Shown one piece after another: positions 50,329 through 62,357 of a DNA stretch of 64,000 nt. Source of the stretch: Patescibacteria group bacterium (GTDB lineage: Bacteria > Patescibacteriota > Minisyncoccia > UBA6257 > JACRHW01); NCBI GenBank assembly GCA_028865725.1, contig JAGWJP010000001.1:143143-207142 (forward strand), in the 5' to 3' direction. Positions within the stretch are counted from its first letter, which is position 1, and each line of letters opens with the position of its first letter. A model generated the notes under the pieces. The model was not told the origin of the DNA and ran no database searches. It was given only the letters and a program-made list of their open reading frames with translations. Made by a program: the position numbers and the translations under genes.

Positions 50329-51450
50329 TTACTTCAACCCTAAGGCCTTTTCTCCCTGTTCAAAGAGATCGAGAAACTCCCTTGATAGAATGAGCGGTAT
50401 AAATTTTTGCTTATCGCCGTCTGATAATTTTGGGAGAGAATCAATATCCCACGCTTCAAAACCTATTGCCTTGCCGGTTTCTATTTTCAAATCTTTGATA
50501 TCACCATCGAATAAATAAACATATTGGGCCCTGAGAGTATTGTTGGTGAGACCGGTAGCTTCGTCGAAACTCTTTTTTGGCATTGTCTTTACCAATTTCA
50601 GTTTGGCCGGATCAAGAGTGATCCCGGTTTCTTCCAGAGCTTCTTTTAAAGCGGTTGCTTCATATGACATTCCCGGATCTACATGACCACCAACCGTTGC
50701 ATCGAGTTTATCAGGATAGGTATCTTTATCTTTTGCCCGGTGTTGGAAGATTAGCTTGCGATCTGGTGTCATAAACCAAATATGAATTTCTCTGTGAAGC
50801 AATCCTTCTTTGTGGATTTTCTTTCTGTTCTCCAGTCCGATTACTTCGTTCTTTTCATTTACCACCTCAAGCAATTCAATACCTGAAATCCTATCATGCG
50901 CAATCGCAATTAGTCTGTTGAACGGTCCAAAGCCATCATCCGAAGTGATGTGTCCGCCCTTCGGAATGGTTATAACCTCAGATCCGAGAAGCTTTTCAAA
51001 TTTTTCTTTAGTTTTCTCGTATGGCACCCAAGGATCATTATCTCCCAATAAGGTGACCAAGAAGCCCAAATTGCTTCTTACTTTTGCAGTATCGATGGGA
51101 GTCTCTGTCCAAGGTTTTGCGATTGCTTCTGCATCCGGCCCCTCAAGATTTTCAAGATCAAACCAGCCAGCGACAAATATTGCGCCACCAACTTTTATAT
51201 TAATAGTTTGTAGATAGCGCATTATAGTCTGACACCCAATACTATGCCCAATAAAGTATGTATCCTGATCCGGAGTGCCAACGATACGATCAAGAAAGGG
51301 CACCCAATCCTCGATGGTAGGATTTTCAGTATGTGGCAAATCTGGACAGACAACCTCGTAGCCAAGCTTCTTGAATTCTGTGGTTGTCCAAGGCATCCAA
51401 TCCCGATCCGATGCCCCATCCCAACCATGAACAATAATTATTTTTTTCAT
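50329..51450 (-). CDS. Fusion protein: an N-terminal alpha/beta-hydrolase (YdeN/RBBP9-like serine hydrolase) joined to a C-terminal Nudix hydrolase.
   Basis: The N-terminus IIIVHGWDGASDRDW...YFIGHSIGCQ is Ser-hydrolase-like. The Nudix box GGHVDPGMSYEATALKEALEETGI is present. Confidence 0.7.
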   Translation of the reverse strand: MKKIIIVHGWDGASDRDWMPWTTTEFKKLGYEVVCPDLPHTENPTIEDWVPFLDRIVGTPDQDTYFIGHSIGCQTIMRYLQTINIKVGGAIFVAGWFDLENLEGPDAEAIAKPWTETPIDTAKVRSNLGFLVTLLGDNDPWVPYEKTKEKFEKLLGSEVITIPKGGHITSDDGFGPFNRLIAIAHDRISGIELLEVVNEKNEVIGLENRKKIHKEGLLHREIHIWFMTPDRKLIFQHRAKDKDTYPDKLDATVGGHVDPGMSYEATALKEALEETGITLDPAKLKLVKTMPKKSFDEATGLTNNTLRAQYVYLFDGDIKDLKIETGKAIGFEAWDIDSLPKLSDGDKQKFIPLILSREFLDLFEQGEKALGLK

Positions 51451-51861: not shown

Positions 51862-52818
51862 TTAATATGCGGTTGTCCTTGTTAAATGATAGGGCTTGTC
51901 ATCGGGGTATTTCGTTTGAGTATATAGCCAAAGATGATCGTTTATGTCCATAGAAGTGATTCCATCAAACCTTTTTTGAACCTCTTGTTTTATAAACTCA
52001 ACCGCCCAGATCGTATTAGCCCTGATTTCAATTTCTTCCTCGCTGTCATGCGGAATGGGGGTTTTAGAATCGATTTTTTCGGCCAGTGAATCGACATAGG
52101 AGAGAATGCCGAATTTTCTAAGTGCTTGAGGCAATTTATAATCAGCACAAGCGGTGATTTCATTGGCATTTTTGAAATCGCCGGGTCCCTGATGTTTAAA
52201 TAACTGGTAGATATCGGCAATTAAAAGCTGGGCTCTTTTATAAAAATCTATCTCTTTTCCTTTATAAATACTTACGTCTCTAAAAGAAGGGAACGTTTCG
52301 ATAATGAACTCGAGTAAATGAACAGCGTCTTTATTTGCTTGCAAAATAAAATCAGAGAAATTGCCGTTGTTCTTTGCGATCAATGCTTTACCAGTCTCGA
52401 CCATAATGACATGTCGTTCATTAAGCAATGGAATCTCTGAATTACCTCGCAGGATCTCGGCGAGTTCCTGCCTGCTCATTTTAGATCGATAGTCGGCACT
52501 TAAAATATCTCGTCCTTCATCTATGGCTCGCTTGAGTGCAACAATCATTCCCCATGCACCGTCAAATTGCTGATCTTTATAAGTTATCGTCCATTTGGGG
52601 TTGCCCCAATAGCTGAAGCTAAGAGCGTTAAAAACAAATAGAAAGTTAAGTTTGTCATCATCGGATAATTCGGAAAAACCAAACGGGGCGGCTGAGAGCC
52701 AGTGCTGAACGTTGGTATGGTCAAAATTCTTTGCGAATTCCAAAACCTTGTCTTGGTTAATTCGGACAAATTGAGATTGATCGATTACCAACTTAGTTGT
52801 TTCTAAAACTTTATTCAT
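51862..52818 (-). CDS. Uncharacterised protein. It possibly belongs to the DUF2419/queuosine-salvage (QNG1-like) family, but that assignment is tentative.
   Basis: 318 aa with FNALSFSYWGNPKW. The family assignment rests on recollection only. Confidence 0.35.
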   Translation of the reverse strand: MNKVLETTKLVIDQSQFVRINQDKVLEFAKNFDHTNVQHWLSAAPFGFSELSDDDKLNFLFVFNALSFSYWGNPKWTITYKDQQFDGAWGMIVALKRAIDEGRDILSADYRSKMSRQELAEILRGNSEIPLLNERHVIMVETGKALIAKNNGNFSDFILQANKDAVHLLEFIIETFPSFRDVSIYKGKEIDFYKRAQLLIADIYQLFKHQGPGDFKNANEITACADYKLPQALRKFGILSYVDSLAEKIDSKTPIPHDSEEEIEIRANTIWAVEFIKQEVQKRFDGITSMDINDHLWLYTQTKYPDDKPYHLTRTTAY

Positions 52819-53138
52819 AGTGTTTCAATAGGATAAATATCGAAAGCAACCTCCTCGTAAGGATGAACCGCTTTCACTTTTTTAATTACTTCGTCCAAAA
52901 TGGATCGAGGAACGACTGCTTCGATCCGCTCTTCTTCGACCGATTCATAGTTTCCACTTTTACCGATAGCTGGGTGAGAATTTTCATTGCCACGATAACG
53001 TCCGATACCTCTGGATGAAAAAGAACAAAAATCATAATTGCCGACTTTACCAGCACCGGCTTCTCCAAGTGTCTGTCTTACAATATCAGCATGGGATAAT
53101 GGAACAAACACTACTAATTTCACATCTTCTGTTTTCAT
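52815..53138 (-). CDS. Small protein (107 aa) resembling the PII-like insert domain of NIF3/YqfO proteins.
   Basis: ...HPYEEVAFDIYPI C-terminal motif. It starts 12 nt after the stop of the PHP-ATPase and overlaps the next gene by 4 nt. Confidence 0.4.
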   Translation of the reverse strand: MKTEDVKLVVFVPLSHADIVRQTLGEAGAGKVGNYDFCSFSSRGIGRYRGNENSHPAIGKSGNYESVEEERIEAVVPRSILDEVIKKVKAVHPYEEVAFDIYPIETL

Positions 53139-53149
53139 TGTTTTATAAA

Positions 53150-56029
53150 TTAATCTGGAAAACTATATTTTTGTTCGCGTTTTTGAAATGCCTCTTTGCC
53201 ACCCTCGAGTATCTCGCAGACATGCTGTCTAATCCCTTTGCGATACAAGATTGCTGGTTCTTGCTCGGCATTGAACTCGAAAGTATTTTCAAGAGCACCT
53301 GACACATATTCAAATCTGTATTTTTTATTATCGCGCCCGATCTCTTGACCGGCTTGGTTCGCGACAATTGTCTCCTCCGAATCTGCACCGACTACAAGGT
53401 TTGGATTATGCGTAACAATAATGATTTGCCTCTGCAATTTTTTCTTTTTCAGAAAGTCTACAAGATCATCGTATACAGAACGGTTGTCGAGATCGTCTTC
53501 GGGCTGATCGAGAAGTATAGGCCATTCTTCATTGCTCAAATTTATGAGCAATTGAAGCAACACGAGGCCTTTCTTTCCGGGAGACATTTTATCAAGCGAA
53601 TCGTTTTTGTAGAAAATTCTAAAATCCAGGAAAAAATAATTATCTAGCAACTTTGTCGAGGCATCTTTTGCTTGGCGATTCTTGACTGTGTTAATAGTGC
53701 CACCAACTAATCCTTCGAATACCGTTGTGATATTAGCAAGGTGCTTTGCTGGGTCATATTTATAAATAAATTCGTCGCCCCACTCAGCTTCGACAATTAC
53801 ACGCTTCAGATCGTGTTTATTTATATATTCCTTGACCACGTCGGAATTAAAAATATCGTCATTAAAACTTACATGGACTCCGAGTGTGATATCTCCAAAT
53901 TTACTCTCAAATTTCTTGAATTCATTCCGCAGGTTTTCGTACTTAGCGACAATCTGCTTATAGGATTCAATGATGCTGTCGGTCTTCTTTTTATGAGACG
54001 CTTTTTTGGTCTTCAGATTATTTCTCTTTATTGCTATTTCGTTCAATTTTTGTTGCTCTTTCTTGATAGCGTCTGTTTTCTCTTGTAACTCTGATTGCAA
54101 TTGGATTTTCGCAAGTAATGGTGCAAGCTCTGCTTTTATCCTTGTCATTTCCGCATTATGAACTTTAAGCTTTGCATCTATCGTGGTGATAAGGTTGAGC
54201 GTGGCAGTTTTTAGCCCAGGTTCGAAAGAATCAATTACTTTTAATTCGCTCTTAAACTTCGTTTTTATGTCGGCGTCATTCAAATACTCTTCGCATTCGT
54301 CTGCGGTTGTTCGCAATGATTCGACTTGAGAAATCAGGCTAGTATTTAAATTCTTTATGGTCTTTTTATCCTCTTCGAGATTTGAAACCTGTGCATTGAT
54401 TTCCTTTTCCTTTGCCACTAATCCCTCATACTGTTTGAGCTGTTCATCGGTCAGACCCGATTTTGCCTTGATAGCATCTGCCTGATTTTGAAGCGTTTTA
54501 ATATAACTCTCTATACCTTTCTCATCCCCTGCCTGTTTCAACTCCTCCTCGGTCTTTCCGATATCGTTGCGATCCAAAAATAACTCATTGATTGCAGTTG
54601 GGATAGACTTAGCTTCAGCTTTTATTTCTCGAAGGGTCTCCTCATATTTTTCTTTTACCGCTGGATCTTGCAAGATCACGTTGAGTACGAACTCATTCAG
54701 GGCCTCACGGCTCTTAATATTGGCTTCCGAAAGTGTATTCAGGTAACGCTGTGGTATATAAAGGATTTTACGTTCTTTTGATTCTTCTTCCGCTGATCCC
54801 TCCGGAACCCGAAGCAGAGTGTGCTGGCCGTCTTTCCATGTGACTTCGAAATTGAAATCCACCGAGTTATCAAAATCGTATTTGACCGGAACCCCGCTGT
54901 CTGAAGTACGACTTTTAACTTCCTGCTGGTCGATCGTTTTGGCCATGTAATAAAGCAGGAGAGATTTACCCGTAGATTTTCCACCGATAATGGTGGTCAG
55001 GTTCTGATTCACTTCTATAGGATCACTTCCAAATTTTGCATCACTTGTATTATCCAAAAAACGGACTTTGTCTATGACGAAATATGACTTTTTCTCCTCC
55101 GGTTTCTGGGGTCCGACAAAAATGCGCTGATCAGATTCGAAGACTATCTGTTTAAGACCTTCGAACGTTGGATCGGCTTTAATCCAAAGGAAGTTACCGT
55201 CTTGATCAGCTTTACCAAGATCACGCAATGATCTGGCGTCCGAGCTTATATGAGAACAAAACTTTGAGGTAAGCGACGTGTTAGTTTTGATATAGTCAGA
55301 GACGGAAGCTGATGACTGTTGACGCTGAGACTGCAAAAGGTTCATCTTTTGATAATTAAAGATATCAGCCAAGTGTGTCCGATCAGTCGCCGTACGTTCT
55401 TGGAAAAGACCGTTACTGCTGTTGCAATGAGGATAAATTATAATCCCTCCGTTTCTTTTGACTTCGTCTATGATTTCCTTGATATCAGTGCTTGTGGTCG
55501 TGAGAACTCCTTGGCTGTTTGTCCGGTTATTGATATTGAATTTTGTTAGAAACGCTTGAATGCCGGCAGAAAATGTAGACTTTTGGTACAGCTTGTCCGA
55601 AAAGAATAACAACATGTGAATGCCTTGGCAGTTGATCTCTACACCAGGGATGATTTTACAACGAGACTCTTTTGAATACTCTATGAACGTATCGAGCAGG
55701 CAATCGTCAAAATAATTATGATCGGTTATGCCTATACAATCTAAGTCGGGATTGAAGGTATCGAGAAAAGCAAAATAATTCCTGATGTGATTCACGCACC
55801 TATCGTTTTTTGTAATTTGAGCATTATTAAAATAAACCTTCGAGTCGTAGAGCAAGGCATTTTCTTCGCCCCCAACCTTAGCGATGTACTGTTGCCAAGC
55901 TGTCGGGTTAGCCGACTTTAATTCCTCTGAATAGTTTGCGAGAGGGATATAGTTGTCGTCCAAAATGGTCTGTGTTTGCAGGTCCCACTTTCTCCATATC
56001 GAACCTTTTGGATAAGGAAAATTATTCAT
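53150..56029 (-). CDS. 959-aa fusion of an N-terminal PHP-family phosphoesterase, a long coiled coil and a split ABC/SMC-type ATPase. It is a candidate defence effector.
   Basis: PHP-like His/Asp motifs CIGITDHNYFDD, IIPGVEINCQGIHMLLFF and IIIYPHCNSSNG. Walker A TTIIGGKSTGKSLL. About 350 aa of heptad-like K/E-rich sequence. Signature-like MSPGKKGLVLLQLL. Walker B PILLDQPEDDLD. H-loop IIIVTHNP. Confidence 0.75.
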   Translation of the reverse strand: MNNFPYPKGSIWRKWDLQTQTILDDNYIPLANYSEELKSANPTAWQQYIAKVGGEENALLYDSKVYFNNAQITKNDRCVNHIRNYFAFLDTFNPDLDCIGITDHNYFDDCLLDTFIEYSKESRCKIIPGVEINCQGIHMLLFFSDKLYQKSTFSAGIQAFLTKFNINNRTNSQGVLTTTSTDIKEIIDEVKRNGGIIIYPHCNSSNGLFQERTATDRTHLADIFNYQKMNLLQSQRQQSSASVSDYIKTNTSLTSKFCSHISSDARSLRDLGKADQDGNFLWIKADPTFEGLKQIVFESDQRIFVGPQKPEEKKSYFVIDKVRFLDNTSDAKFGSDPIEVNQNLTTIIGGKSTGKSLLLYYMAKTIDQQEVKSRTSDSGVPVKYDFDNSVDFNFEVTWKDGQHTLLRVPEGSAEEESKERKILYIPQRYLNTLSEANIKSREALNEFVLNVILQDPAVKEKYEETLREIKAEAKSIPTAINELFLDRNDIGKTEEELKQAGDEKGIESYIKTLQNQADAIKAKSGLTDEQLKQYEGLVAKEKEINAQVSNLEEDKKTIKNLNTSLISQVESLRTTADECEEYLNDADIKTKFKSELKVIDSFEPGLKTATLNLITTIDAKLKVHNAEMTRIKAELAPLLAKIQLQSELQEKTDAIKKEQQKLNEIAIKRNNLKTKKASHKKKTDSIIESYKQIVAKYENLRNEFKKFESKFGDITLGVHVSFNDDIFNSDVVKEYINKHDLKRVIVEAEWGDEFIYKYDPAKHLANITTVFEGLVGGTINTVKNRQAKDASTKLLDNYFFLDFRIFYKNDSLDKMSPGKKGLVLLQLLINLSNEEWPILLDQPEDDLDNRSVYDDLVDFLKKKKLQRQIIIVTHNPNLVVGADSEETIVANQAGQEIGRDNKKYRFEYVSGALENTFEFNAEQEPAILYRKGIRQHVCEILEGGKEAFQKREQKYSFPD

Positions 56030-56034
56030 AAATA

Positions 56035-56832
56035 CTAAAGAATTACAGTCACTTTTTCATAAAGCATAGGCCAGCTATCCTGACGCATTCTAAATTTAGT
56101 ACCGTGGTTATGACCACTGCGAGCATCGAAGTCGACGAGAATCTTTGCTTCTTCAATAGCTTTCAAAAATCCTTCAAAGCTGAATTTTTGAAGCATCATA
56201 ACCTTATTGTATTTGTAATATTCCTTACCTCGGACAGTTTTGACCTCTGCCTGAACATAAAAACTATTCAAAAGTTTTGTACCGGCCTTATGTTCAAGAT
56301 CATCAAAACCCCAATATGGCTGTGGATTAAGTTCGCCAAGTCCTACTCGTTCCTTTACCACCTTAAGCCATTCGGCGTGTCGGATGTCCACGCTCTTCGC
56401 ATCAAATGATATTAAGACTTTCTTTTCGGTCCGATCGATTTTTACCATAAAACCACGATCGCTACGTGTAAGACCATGAATAGTCTGTCGAAAACTCATC
56501 TCACCTTTTGGATACTTCTTGCCATCTTCCTGATGCGCCCAACCATATTTCGGTAAAAGAACTTGTGGCACAAAACGAATAGCTCTGGGGGAGGGTTCAA
56601 TGTGAAATAAAGTACAAAGAGAAGTTGAATTCAATCGTTGGGCTTTTAATTCCCATTCGGCCGCATTTGGAATAGGTAGATTATTTTCTTTGATTCCGAG
56701 TAAGTCTTCGAGAGTATTCCCGATACCGCCGTGATTGCCCTTGCGAGCATTAGGAACCCACCCCATATTGGCAATCTCTTTTAATTTTTCAATAAGGGCC
56801 GGCTTTGTGTAAATTTTCGGTTTGTTTGGCAT
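56035..56832 (-). CDS. Putative Type II restriction endonuclease (by recollection, MvaI/BcnI-like).
   Basis: Immediately downstream of the MTase. Start moved from the listed TTG (56913, overlapping the MTase by 77 nt) to the ATG at 56830-56832 (MPNKPKIYTK), 4 nt after the MTase stop. The family call is tentative. Confidence 0.5.
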   Translation of the reverse strand: MPNKPKIYTKPALIEKLKEIANMGWVPNARKGNHGGIGNTLEDLLGIKENNLPIPNAAEWELKAQRLNSTSLCTLFHIEPSPRAIRFVPQVLLPKYGWAHQEDGKKYPKGEMSFRQTIHGLTRSDRGFMVKIDRTEKKVLISFDAKSVDIRHAEWLKVVKERVGLGELNPQPYWGFDDLEHKAGTKLLNSFYVQAEVKTVRGKEYYKYNKVMMLQKFSFEGFLKAIEEAKILVDFDARSGHNHGTKFRMRQDSWPMLYEKVTVIL

Positions 56833-56836
56833 ATCT

Positions 56837-57658
56837 TTATAAAAGTTTTTGTTGGGCTTTATGGTTTTTAATTCTCTTCTCGGCCATCTCGCAATACTCC
56901 GGCGAAAGATCAATACCGATATAATGCCGGTTAAAATTTATTGCAGAAAGTGCGGTAGTACCAGAACCCATAAATGGGTCCAGAATAATTTTCGCATTGG
57001 TAGACGACACAATACGATCTATAAGATTTACAGGGAAAGCGGCTGGATGTTCGTTATTCATCTCCTGTGTAAATTCCCATACGTCACCGTGGCCACTTGC
57101 CTTAGGTGATAATTTAAATTTAGGTTTGGCGATAAGATAGATCACTTCGTATGTCGGCACAAAGTAACCGGGGTTAAAATTGAAACCGCCCTTTCTTCTC
57201 CAAATTATTATCTGGCGCACAGGAAAGCCACTTACAATATCCTGCCGATCCTGCAAAACACCTCCTTGTACGCGCCATTTATGATTGTAGAAAATCGCAC
57301 CATCTTCAGGAATAATCCTCATCATCTCCGCCAAGCATTCACGTTGCCATTTCACATACTCATCATGAGGCATACAGTCGTTATGGTGGGAGTAACCTTT
57401 TTGAAGTGCGGCATTTGCCCATTTACCACCACGGCCATCTTTCATGCCATTACCTGTAGAATTTTTAAGATTATAGGGTGGCGAAGTCACTATTAAATCA
57501 ACCGAGCCATCAGGTATTTTTTTCATGATATCAACTGCATTACCGCAGATGATTTTATTTAAAAAGTGATTAGGATATTCTAACTTCATAACCTTAGATT
57601 TAATGGGGCTCGTCTTTATTTTTACTTGAGTTTCCATATTATTTTGAATGCTTTTCAT
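56837..57658 (-). CDS. Beta-class DNA amino-methyltransferase (N4-cytosine or N6-adenine).
   Basis: Motif IV DLIVTSPPY precedes motif I FMGSGTT, which is the beta-class order. Confidence 0.85.
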   Translation of the reverse strand: MKSIQNNMETQVKIKTSPIKSKVMKLEYPNHFLNKIICGNAVDIMKKIPDGSVDLIVTSPPYNLKNSTGNGMKDGRGGKWANAALQKGYSHHNDCMPHDEYVKWQRECLAEMMRIIPEDGAIFYNHKWRVQGGVLQDRQDIVSGFPVRQIIIWRRKGGFNFNPGYFVPTYEVIYLIAKPKFKLSPKASGHGDVWEFTQEMNNEHPAAFPVNLIDRIVSSTNAKIILDPFMGSGTTALSAINFNRHYIGIDLSPEYCEMAEKRIKNHKAQQKLL

Positions 57659-57842: not shown

Positions 57843-58003
57843 AAAAATAAATTAAGTCGTTGGTATCATTTTACCGCTTTCAGATTTCGTTGTCAAAATT
57901 GCCGGTTTTTGTCATAATGTACTTATGAGCTAATCTGATAAAGTTTAGTGAATGGGAGACATAAAATAGGTCCGATTCACTAAAATTTGATTAATCGGCT
58001 TGA

Positions 58004-60761: not shown

Positions 60762-62357
60762 ATGATGAAAGGAATTATTTACACAAGAGTATCAAGCGAT
60801 GAACAGGTCAAAGGTACCTCGCTGGAACACCAAGAGGAACTTTGCCGGAAATACTGCAAAGACAAAGGCATCGAAGTCGATGTGGTTTTCCGTGAGGAAG
60901 GAGAAAGTGCAAAAGACCTGAGCTTGCAGAATCGCAAAAGGTTTCTGGAAGCTCTTGAGTTCTGTCGCAAGAACAAAGACAAGGTCCAGGCCTTTGTGGT
61001 TTTGCGCGTGGATAGATTTGCCCGTAATGCCGATGACCATTTTGCTATTAGAAAAATCCTAGCGACGTATGGCACAACACTGCATTCAGTCACCGAACCG
61101 ATCGGAAATGAGCCGGTAGCTAAGCTTTTGGAAACATTCCTTGCCGGTATTGCTGAATTTGATAACGCCATCAGAAAACAAAGATGCAGTGATGGAATGC
61201 TTGCCAGAATCAACCAAGGTATCTATCCATGGAAACCGCCGATCGGTTATAAATGCGTTAACTTCAAAAAGCACGGCGAGAAAAAGACCCACGCCGATCC
61301 GCCCCACGAGCAGATATTCCCGATTATCCAAAGAGGACTGAAAGAATTCGCTCAGGGTCTGCACTCGCAAAGCGAGCTGATGAGAAAACTGGACGAATGG
61401 GGTCTTAAGGATTTGACCGGAAAGAAAAGCACGCCCCAGCTTGTAAGCCGATTAGTGACCAACTACCTAAAGTTTTATGCCGGCATAATTACCAATCCGT
61501 GGACAGGCAAAGATGTTGAGGGCCAGCATATTCCGATGATTACCAAAGACGAGATGTATCAAATCAAAATGATCCTGACCGGTAAAAAGAGATTGGTGGC
61601 TAAATACAACATCTTCAATCCAGACTTTCCGCTTAGACGAACCGTAACCTGCGCTGTTTGCGGACGACCGCTGACCGGAAGCGCGCCTCGAGGCGGAATG
61701 GGAGGACGATATAACTATTACCACTGCGGAAATAAGAACTGCCGGGTATTTGGTAAAAGCACACCCAAGCTGGAATTGGAAAAGATGTTTTTTGAATATT
61801 TAGAGAGAGTTACTCCCAAACAAGCGTTCCTCGATATTTTCAAGGAAAGCGTGATTGATATTTGGAAAGAAAAAGGCCAGAGGTTTGAAATGGAAGCCGA
61901 GAAGTGGAAAAAGAAGCTGGAAACGCTTGAGGCAAAGAAAAAACGCATCTACGAAATGCGAGAGGACGGTTCATATACCAAAGAGGAGTTTGTGGAACGG
62001 AAAGATGAAATTGAGAACGAGATATCAACCACCAGAATATTATCCAACGAAGCCCGAATCGAGCAGTTCGATATTGAAGGATCAGTCATTTATGCGACCA
62101 AGTTCATAAGCAACCTCGGCCGACAATGGTTCGACCTTGTGCCACACTTACAGCCCAAGTTCCAGAAACTAGTCTTCCCAGAAGGAATACCGTTTGAATG
62201 GAAAAAAGGATTTGGAACTGCCAAATTAGCAGTCATTTACGAGATGAATCGGGAATTCTCGACTGAAAATTCCGCTTTGGTGGACCTAGCGAGAATCGAA
62301 CTCGCGTCTCTACAATGCGAATGTAGCGTCTTGCCACTGGACCATAGGCCCAAATGA
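60762..62357 (+). CDS. Large serine recombinase (phage-integrase type).
   Basis: The resolvase catalytic domain IIYTRVSSDEQ carries the catalytic Ser. A recombinase domain and zinc ribbon CAVCGRPLTGS...YYHCGNKNC follow. The last 25 codons are antisense to tRNA-Ala. Confidence 0.85.
   Translation: MMKGIIYTRVSSDEQVKGTSLEHQEELCRKYCKDKGIEVDVVFREEGESAKDLSLQNRKRFLEALEFCRKNKDKVQAFVVLRVDRFARNADDHFAIRKILATYGTTLHSVTEPIGNEPVAKLLETFLAGIAEFDNAIRKQRCSDGMLARINQGIYPWKPPIGYKCVNFKKHGEKKTHADPPHEQIFPIIQRGLKEFAQGLHSQSELMRKLDEWGLKDLTGKKSTPQLVSRLVTNYLKFYAGIITNPWTGKDVEGQHIPMITKDEMYQIKMILTGKKRLVAKYNIFNPDFPLRRTVTCAVCGRPLTGSAPRGGMGGRYNYYHCGNKNCRVFGKSTPKLELEKMFFEYLERVTPKQAFLDIFKESVIDIWKEKGQRFEMEAEKWKKKLETLEAKKKRIYEMREDGSYTKEEFVERKDEIENEISTTRILSNEARIEQFDIEGSVIYATKFISNLGRQWFDLVPHLQPKFQKLVFPEGIPFEWKKGFGTAKLAVIYEMNREFSTENSALVDLARIELASLQCECSVLPLDHRPK
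62278..62351 (-). tRNA. tRNA-Ala (CGC) with G3:U70 and encoded CCA.
   Basis: On the minus strand: gggccta/taggtcc acceptor with the G3-U70 wobble, which is the Ala identity element; anticodon arm ctaca-uuCGCau-tgtag; T-arm gcgag-ttcgatt-ctcgc; discriminator A; CCA. Confidence 0.8.

Follow-up and report, generated by a model that had tools for sequence, protein, structure and literature searches.

An open reading frame on the reverse strand of a 64,000-nucleotide stretch of DNA from a Patescibacteria group bacterium (contig JAGWJP010000001.1, positions 143,143 to 207,142; the whole stretch is called the window below) encodes a protein of 959 residues in which a PHP-fold domain is joined to an SMC/Rad50-like ABC (ATP-binding cassette) ATPase. 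By its sequence, the gene is a further member of a known family, the fusion of PHP and ABC ATPase having already been named and catalogued as TrlF and Ppl. We consider it fairly probable that the product is a Ppl/TrlF-family defence protein, which combines a PHP domain presumed to be a nuclease with the ATPase and acts on DNA ends made by the neighbouring restriction enzyme. Less well known than the architecture seem to be the remodelled metal site of the PHP domain, the linkage of the gene to restriction operons and its mobility as a cassette. No description of a PHP variant with Q-x-Q and D-x-R motifs, of embedding in restriction-modification (RM) operons or of cassette mobility was found in the literature searched, the coverage of which lacked the primary papers on Ppl and on ABC ATPase classification.

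Family membership and domain architecture

The protein matched the NCBIfam model NF045780, "TrlF family AAA-like ATPase", with 492.9 bits, the curated equivalog cut-off being 350 (E 3e-147). Residues 88-955 aligned with positions 34-943 of the 944 positions of the model, and the first ~90 residues, comprising PHP motif I and a 60-residue insertion, lay outside the match. The layout is that of TrlF, i.e. an ABC/AAA-like ATPase preceded by a PHP-like domain at the N-terminus, in a protein of ~900-1000 residues (860-1040 residues in full-length relatives), and the coiled coil, the C-terminal tail and the plasmid and defence-island lifestyle of the family are also shared. An identical 959-residue protein is already on record as a "hypothetical protein" from a Patescibacteria-group metagenome-assembled genome (463-kb contig).

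Weaker NCBIfam matches were obtained with the Spaf_1101 and Ppl models, and the top PADLOC match was Ppl (3.3e-18). For a protein annotated as Ppl by RefSeq on a plasmid of Acinetobacter pittii, the Ppl model gave 1078 bits and the TrlF model 501 bits. Because Ppl also exceeds the TrlF cut-off, Ppl and the window protein can be assigned to one superfamily, with Ppl as a subfamily. BLASTP and domain alignment indicated that these two single-gene PHP and NTPase proteins are colinear in every motif (PHP motifs I-V, the WIKADPTFEGL linker, Walker A, SPGxK, LDQPEDDLD, the H-loop and the EGG..AF tail), although identity in the aligned blocks was only ~18-33%. An earlier note on this DNA had implied that the PHP-ABC fusion was new; this does not hold, as the fusion is covered by NF045780, by the Ppl entries of PADLOC and NCBIfam and by RefSeq annotations of plasmids.

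Ppl is a single-gene anti-phage system of E. coli with PHP and ATPase domains (PMC11482910; Vassallo et al. 2022). Its mechanism (Xu et al., Mol Cell 2026;86:180), as summarised in PMC12904381 and PMC13434339, is that of a single-stranded DNA 3'-5' exonuclease that is inhibited by nucleoside triphosphates (NTPs) on both the PHP and the NTPase domain and is activated by NTP depletion and by 3'-OH ends from phage homing endonucleases. Since this subfamily of the same superfamily has a published mechanism, the architecture may be regarded as mechanistically characterised through Ppl. The name TrlF comes from the large gene trlF of the temperature-restriction locus trlR-trlF-trlG of Photorhabdus laumondii, where it is annotated "histidinol phosphatase" and where no phenotype has been traced to trlF itself (PMC7554251). 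A literature search on "TrlF" returned the Photorhabdus paper alone, and no paper was retrieved by a search that paired PHP phosphoesterase and ABC ATPase.

Pfam detected no PHP family (PF02811) in the protein up to an E value of 0.01, and SMC_N and AAA_21 matched below threshold only (SMC_N with 24.4 bits, the cut-off being 40). Pfam matches to SLATT_5 and PC4 in the coiled coil were spurious. Searches of PDB sequences with the single sequence and with a 41-sequence profile yielded no Ppl or TrlF structure and marginal matches to SMC, LolD and PtuA.

The reading frame and the motifs of the ATPase part are as follows.

53150..56029 (-): whole open reading frame of the TrlF-family PHP and ABC ATPase protein; ATG start, 959 residues, uninterrupted, stop codon at 53150-53152
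54962..54985 (-): Walker A GGKSTGKS, residues 349-356; from the alignment, with a weak profile match to the P-loop region of PtuA
54743..54760 (-): Q-loop YIPQRY, with P426 and Q427 invariant in the 41-relative alignment
53915..54712 (-): antiparallel coiled-coil insertion, residues 440-705, with its apex near Y582; from the AlphaFold2 (AF2) helices and Foldseek
53567..53587 (-): ABC signature-like motif MSPGKKG, residues 815-821; M815 to K819 invariant, aligning with SPGQK of Ppl
53486..53518 (-): Walker B and D-loop ILLDQPEDDLD, residues 838-848; aligns with the SMC Walker B in 5h66
53402..53425 (-): H-loop IIIVTHNP, residues 869-876 (H874); from the alignment
53153..53362 (-): conserved C-terminal tail including EILEGGKEAF, residues 890-959; common to Ppl, with low model confidence and high sequence conservation

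The reading frame and all of the motifs quoted in the earlier note were found in place. Walker A, Q-loop, signature, Walker B, D-loop and H-loop followed each other in the order of an ABC ATPase and were invariant or nearly so in the 41 relatives. An AF2 model built on the same alignment (pLDDT, the predicted local distance difference test score, was 78 overall and above 90 in the N-terminal domain) contained helices at residues 440-452, 456-500, 503-522, 528-581, 586-640 and 645-705 that fold back on each other. The half-heads are thus separated by a long antiparallel coiled coil of the SMC/Rad50 type, the breaks of which are conserved at G501/G505/G525 and P637. When the model was compared with the PDB by Foldseek, the heads with coiled coils of MukB, SMC, JetC (Wadjet), Rad50 and LmuB (Lamassu) were retrieved (E 2e-9 to 1e-3). 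These results bear out the proposal of the earlier note that one polypeptide combines PHP with a split ABC ATPase resembling Rad50/SbcC and OLD, the head carrying coiled-coil arms and not being that of an AAA+ ring protein. The coiled coil of about 350 residues that it described is real, but shorter (~265 residues), as the 460 residues between Walker A and the signature also hold head strands.

A zinc hook was sought in the arms and no CxxC was found there, C579 being their sole cysteine; at the apex, the chain makes a short turn near Y582 and forms no SMC hinge. The Pfam and PADLOC scans revealed no TOPRIM domain of the OLD type, the C-terminus being a 70-residue tail, and no anticodon-nuclease domain of the PrrC/RloC type was detected in the Pfam and NCBIfam scans. 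Like SbcCD and Mre11-Rad50, the protein has an ABC head into which an antiparallel coiled coil is inserted and with which a (here presumed) metal-dependent nuclease is associated, and DNA ends are its likely substrate. Unlike them, it carries the nuclease in cis and as a PHP domain instead of the calcineurin-like fold of Mre11, its arms are much shorter (~130 residues each) and without zinc hook, and its Walker B is a DQPE variant reminiscent of OLD. With the OLD family and Gabija GajA it shares the presence of ABC ATPase and nuclease in one chain, the DEPE-like Walker B and, if the reading proposed here is right, a nucleotide-regulated nuclease with a role in defence. The nuclease of OLD and GajA is however a C-terminal TOPRIM domain and not an N-terminal PHP domain, and OLD has no long coiled-coil insertion.

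The remodelled metal site of the PHP domain

55094..56008 (-): N-terminal PHP-fold domain, residues 8-312; from AF2, Foldseek and profile matches
55967..55987 (-): PHP motif I WDLQTQT, residues 15-21; Q18 and Q20 in place of the canonical H-x-H
55715..55732 (-): PHP motif II GITDHN, residues 100-105 (H104); from the motif alignment
55616..55645 (-): PHP motif III GVEINCQGIH, residues 129-138 (E131 invariant; H138); from the motif alignment
55421..55435 (-): PHP motif IV YPHCN, residues 199-203 (H201); from the motif alignment
55232..55246 (-): PHP motif V SSDAR, with D264 invariant and R266 in place of the canonical His; from the motif alignment
55148..55186 (-): conserved linker motif WIKADPTFEGLKQ, residues 282-294, leading from the PHP domain to the ATPase head; from the alignment, the Ppl counterpart being WVKMSEPSFDGIKH

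The N-terminal part of the model has the distorted TIM-barrel of the PHP superfamily. Foldseek retrieved the PHP phosphoesterases 3e38, 3o0f and 3e0f for it, and a sequence profile of the domain matched PHP proteins of the PDB (9etk, E 0.0043; 7ug9, 0.017; 2anu, 0.044), the nearest relatives at the sequence level including the exoribonuclease RNase AM. The NCBIfam match to CehA/McbA was weak (0.0083). The PHP fold announced by the earlier note was thereby borne out. A helical insertion of ~60 residues (~33-95) separates motifs I and II in the window protein and is missing from Ppl.

The nine ligand positions are occupied by Q18, Q20, D24, H104, E131, H138, H201, D264 and R266, as compared with H, H, S/D, H, E, H, H, D and H in Ppl, which has all nine canonical ligands. 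The metal-binding His/Asp motifs reported in the earlier note are therefore present for six of the nine ligands, but motif I reads Q-x-Q and motif V D-x-R. The same pattern was observed in GTDB loci down to ~35% identity, including cultured Pseudidiomarina. Histidine is one third-position codon change away from glutamine. Q18, Q20 and R266 were nevertheless retained across 22 genes despite variation of their codons (CAA/CAG and AGA/AGG/CGA/CGG). Clustering at 50% identity of the proteins gathered with the N-terminal domain alone as query left 97 full-length representatives, of which 33 had the ligand pattern QQDHEHHDR and 26 had HHDHEHHDR, the middle five ligands being almost invariant. Within the close clade, identity amounted to 70% in the PHP domain, 74% and 79% in the ATPase half-heads and 78% in the tail. 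The spread of the pattern to ~35% identity, the synonymous codon changes, the cluster counts and the conservation of the PHP domain together show that the variant site is under purifying selection and is not a product of decay.

In comparison with 21 more distant relatives (45-56% identical overall), identity fell to 27% in the PHP domain, whereas it was 60-64% in the heads and 75% in the tail, and different PHP "types" are therefore carried by one conserved ATPase chassis. The existence of such discrete types points to domain swapping or to fast evolution of the effector. Other TrlF types are also non-canonical, with HHxYEN[PSG]DH in one of them and QHxYEQGDH in the Petrotoga clade. The GTDB loci with HHxYEN[PSG]DH were equated with the enterobacterial-plasmid type of TrlF, from which the window protein would differ by its QQDHEHHDR pattern; of this pattern, motifs II-V were confirmed directly, on the N-terminally truncated coding sequence of a Klebsiella plasmid.

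As an alternative, the PHP domain may have lost its catalytic activity in this subclade. The domain would then serve only as a sensor or scaffold that binds nucleotide or nucleic acid, and the protein as an SMC-like DNA clamp or an end-binder by which another nuclease, for instance the adjacent restriction enzyme, is recruited or stimulated. The replacement of both histidines of motif I and of the last histidine would fit with this, as would the lack of two or three canonical ligands in other TrlF clades and the NTP binding by the PHP domain that is reported in the published summaries on Ppl. The PHP domain of the E. coli polymerase III alpha subunit provides a precedent for an inactive, structural PHP. 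Yet, the six remaining ligands (D24, H104, E131, H138, H201 and D264) are strictly kept, the replacements are themselves under purifying selection, the domain is conserved like the ATPase heads within the clade, and glutamine and arginine could still permit catalysis with fewer or harder metal ions. A dead domain therefore appears quite unlikely to us.

The canonical PHP site holds three metals. By analogy with it, the metal site formed by E131, H138 and H201 would be intact in the window protein, the HxH/E/D site would have become rich in oxygen ligands, and an arginine would stand for a ligand at the third-metal site. The remodelled site thus probably has a metal stoichiometry unlike the canonical one, and catalysis by it is a prediction.

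Restriction-modification neighbours and the proposed role

The gene is preceded by an RM pair, and a recombinase gene lies further upstream.

56837..57658 (-): N4/N6 DNA methyltransferase (TSPPY motif), the gene for which opens the co-directional cluster; Pfam PF01555 6.9e-40, PADLOC MTase_II 6.2e-123
56035..56832 (-): MvaI/BcnI-family type II restriction endonuclease, likely start ATG at 56832; Pfam PF15515 8e-67, PADLOC REase_II 3.8e-84
57868..57896 (-): candidate sigma-70-like promoter TTGACA-17-TAAAAT upstream of the methyltransferase gene; 11/12 positions, the best in the region
60762..62357 (+): large serine recombinase (Resolvase and Zn_ribbon_recom domain matches), probable mobility gene of the island

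The genes for the methyltransferase, the MvaI/BcnI endonuclease and, in third place, TrlF lie on one strand, with gaps of 4 and 5 nt. In a scan of the region for promoters and terminators, the number of sites was at the level of shuffled sequence. Gene order and context indicate that the TrlF gene is the last gene of a predicted RM operon within a mobile island. Over the whole window, CCWGG occurred 39 times (66.7 ± 7.7 in dinucleotide shuffles) and CCSGG 45 times (70.4 ± 7.7), both ~40% below expectation; because the two are equally depleted, this does not inform on the specificity of the MvaI/BcnI-type enzyme.

The same association was observed with unrelated restriction systems in the relatives, which are designated here by locus numbers. 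TrlF lay within type I operons, as HsdM-HsdS-[TrlF]-HsdR in L012 (4746-11775) and L013 and as HsdM-[TrlF]-HsdS-..-HsdR in L090 (3521-12880), and HsdR was found immediately upstream of it in L037, L054, L059 and L075. Its neighbours were a methyltransferase and CfrBI in L018 (3687-8829), L022 and L024, an EcoRI-type methylase and GmrSD_N-HNH in L007 (348-5304), L008, L017, L020 and L032, R.HinP1I in L049, a type III-like mod and ResIII in L026, L030 and L093, and ResIII-Eco57I in L042. Two methyltransferases and two genes without known family accompanied it in L095, L009 and L015. The gaps between TrlF and these restriction neighbours were mostly of -8 to +16 nt. Beside Ppl on the A. pittii plasmid, a gene for a type I S subunit lies ~1.9 kb away on the opposite strand.

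A scan of the same-strand genes within 100 nt of TrlF comprised 66 genes, from 53 of 79 loci. About 26 of them (~40%) had RM Pfam domains: ResIII in 11, SWI2_SNF2 in 7, HSDR_N in 5, Methylase_S in 4, GmrSD_N/HNH in 3, N6_N4_Mtase, RE_CfrBI and Eco57I in 2 each, and Eco47II, HinP1I, N6_Mtase and RE_endonuc in one each. RM genes make up ~1% or less of the genes in genomes generally. Defence families other than RM were rare among the 66 neighbours, and clustering of the neighbours of the 79 loci disclosed no conserved single partner gene, the largest clusters having 7 members.

These findings suggest how the protein could work, if it behaves as is reported for Ppl. At normal NTP levels, bound nucleotide would keep the enzyme off. 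During infection, free DNA ends and falling NTP pools would cause the ATPase head to engage a DNA end, and the PHP domain would then degrade the DNA exonucleolytically. The ends would be supplied by the neighbouring restriction enzyme as it cuts unmethylated invader DNA, a step suggested by the gene order in the window and in many relatives. In this way, DNA cut by restriction would be irreversibly degraded by the protein, much as RecBCD acts after restriction in E. coli. The earlier note had proposed an ATP-gated nuclease directed against invading DNA or DNA ends; this agrees with the summarised findings on Ppl, but is carried over to the window protein by analogy, three of its ligands being replaced.

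Several observations weigh against this reading. Only six of the nine canonical metal ligands are present, Q18 and Q20 replacing both histidines of motif I and R266 the last histidine, and because of these three replacements a Ppl-like exonuclease activity is not to be assumed. The score on the Ppl model NF042955 was 101.1 bits, far below the cut-off of 1000. The confidence of the AF2 model was low near Walker A and in the C-terminal tail. The close relatives L091 and L094 have no RM neighbour, and the adjacency could in part be due to clustering in defence islands and not to functional coupling. Furthermore, enzymes of the MvaI/BcnI type leave 1-nt 5' overhangs. Ppl, in contrast, is reported to need 3'-OH overhangs.

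Another possibility is that the protein guards restriction in the manner of PrrC or PARIS, its ATPase sensing the inhibition of restriction or an anti-restriction protein (e.g. a DNA mimic) and its PHP domain attacking host and phage nucleic acid in abortive infection. The embedding in type I operons in L012, L013 and L090 mirrors the hsdM-hsdS-prrC-hsdR layout, as for prrC in EcoprrI (PrrC background in PMC12707154). Like PrrC/RloC and AriA of PARIS, the protein has an ABC ATPase fused to or paired with a nuclease and is encoded in or next to restriction operons, and NTP-pool sensing is reported for both PrrC and Ppl. PADLOC gave a weak match to the PARIS ATPase AriA (2.7e-6), and the relationship of the PHP domain to RNase AM makes RNA a possible target. 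However, the effector is here a PHP domain, N-terminal to the ATPase, and not an anticodon nuclease or a TOPRIM domain. The partners belong to unrelated kinds of enzyme (type I, II, III and IIG/IV-like), a finding that speaks against sensing through a specific protein-protein interface; several relatives have no RM neighbour; and the homologue Ppl, as summarised in the sources cited above, acts alone, sensing DNA ends and NTP levels. We therefore regard a guardian function as unlikely.

A more far-reaching version of the degradation of restriction-made ends is that the subclade is a portable add-on for RM operons of types I, II and III, which would couple cleavage, or its failure, to nucleic-acid degradation through an undescribed QxQ/Arg catalytic variant of PHP. 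We put this forward tentatively, as a possibility with less than even chances. The linkage with unrelated types of RM suggests a general second step of restriction, in which ends are degraded or restriction is guarded. If true, this could explain how small genomes such as those of Patescibacteria finish off restricted DNA. The widely conserved Q-x-Q/D-x-R site could also inform on PHP catalysis and metal use, and this case shows that proteins annotated as "hypothetical protein" in genomes of the candidate phyla radiation can be assigned to defence families that already have a name.

Distribution, cassette mobility and the surrounding island

The survey of phyletic distribution and genomic neighbourhoods that the earlier note had suggested revealed a wide spread, a presence on plasmids and the frequent RM neighbours described above. 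Homologues comprised 1986 proteins at E ≤1e-5 among 8000 candidates scored. In the GTDB set of one genome per species, a search with only two peptide patterns led to 298 confirmed loci, in Patescibacteria, Proteobacteria, Bacteroidota, Firmicutes, Spirochaetota, Poribacteria and others. Of the 689 plasmid records with a match, 474 were conjugative, and among the plasmid matches listed the RefSeq name was mostly "TrlF family AAA-like ATPase".

Comparison of the window (53151..56033) with the relative L094 (570-3452) showed 93% identity of the proteins and 83.5% identity of the nucleotide sequences, with unrelated flanks. Since the homology corresponds exactly to the reading frame and 4 upstream nt, the TrlF gene moves as a discrete one-gene cassette. 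Serine recombinases flank the relatives L001, L002-L004 and L008, and serine recombinases, integrases, relaxases and ArdC are found beside several copies of the family.

This behaviour bears on the possibility that the protein is a housekeeping enzyme of double-strand breaks, i.e. a one-chain analogue of SbcCD or Mre11-Rad50 in a reduced Patescibacteria genome. Although the Rad50/SMC-like head with its coiled coil and the presence of RmuC and SbcC-like genes near some relatives are compatible with such a function, we find it very improbable in view of the patchy, horizontally transferred spread over many phyla and plasmids, the unrelated flanks at 93% identity, the setting in an island with recombinase and RM genes, and the missing zinc hook.

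The family being named after the Photorhabdus locus, we also considered that the gene could belong to a temperature-restriction module of the TrlR-TrlF-TrlG type, with a partner containing SLFN_AlbA_2 and HATPase_c_4 domains. Relatives in Petrotoga and Desulfonauticus do have an overlapping TrlG-like gene. Unlike TrlF of Photorhabdus, however, the window protein has neither partner: a tblastn search with a TrlG-like protein found no TrlG homologue in the 64-kb window, and no small helix-turn-helix (TrlR-like) gene adjoins TrlF, its neighbours being the RM genes and a NIF3-insert-like gene. TrlG is also missing beside most relatives, a TrlG-like partner being found in few loci only (Petrotoga, Desulfonauticus, L045 and L067), and no phenotype was traced to trlF in Photorhabdus (PMC7554251). 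A function of this type is hardly credible for the window gene.

In the Petrotoga and Desulfonauticus loci (L005:8001-12168, L006 and L051:4106-8733), the TrlF-like gene overlaps the SLFN_AlbA_2 and HATPase_c_4 gene as in the Photorhabdus locus. A different arrangement was observed in Flavobacteriia (L069:5236-10033, L070, L071, L072, L076, L078 and L080), where the gene order is that of a distant TrlF member (31-36% identity; NF045780 score 606 bits), a conserved protein of 445 residues without family match and an MksE-like protein of 216 residues. This order suggests a condensin/Wadjet-like module of three genes with the PHP-ABC protein in the position of SMC. On a Klebsiella pneumoniae plasmid (NZ_CP091060.1; L088:3305-7067), the annotated TrlF coding sequence starts with MGATDYCT within PHP motif II, right after an IS5 transposase. 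The widespread TrlF copy of enterobacterial plasmids may thus be truncated at its N-terminus and devoid of motif I, apparently on many similar plasmids.

Within the window, the G+C content was ~0.40 across 50-58 kb, a region that comprises the RM-TrlF cluster together with four genes on its downstream side, as compared with 0.45-0.47 elsewhere. These four genes, on the same strand as TrlF, encode a NIF3-insert-like protein, a queuosine-salvage protein, a HIT protein and a Ser-hydrolase/NUDIX protein. The first of them (52815..53138, -) follows the TrlF gene after 11 nt and overlaps the queuosine-salvage gene; its product, a stand-alone protein of 107 residues, resembles the NIF3-related protein 2gx8 in the inserted domain only (residues 161-261; E 1.5e-31). 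The last (50329..51450, -), at the end of the co-directional cluster and adjoined by HIT and Q_salvage, encodes a fusion of Ser_hydrolase (alpha/beta hydrolase) and NUDIX. On the other side, the segment from 58 to 62.4 kb contains small genes without known family, a DUF5659 gene, a helix-turn-helix gene and the large serine recombinase gene, and the AT skew rises to +0.17 to +0.23 in 58-62 kb. ARAGORN called a tRNA-Ala(CGC) at 62278..62351 (-), wholly within the 3' end of the recombinase reading frame, which may be an attachment site of the island or a false call.

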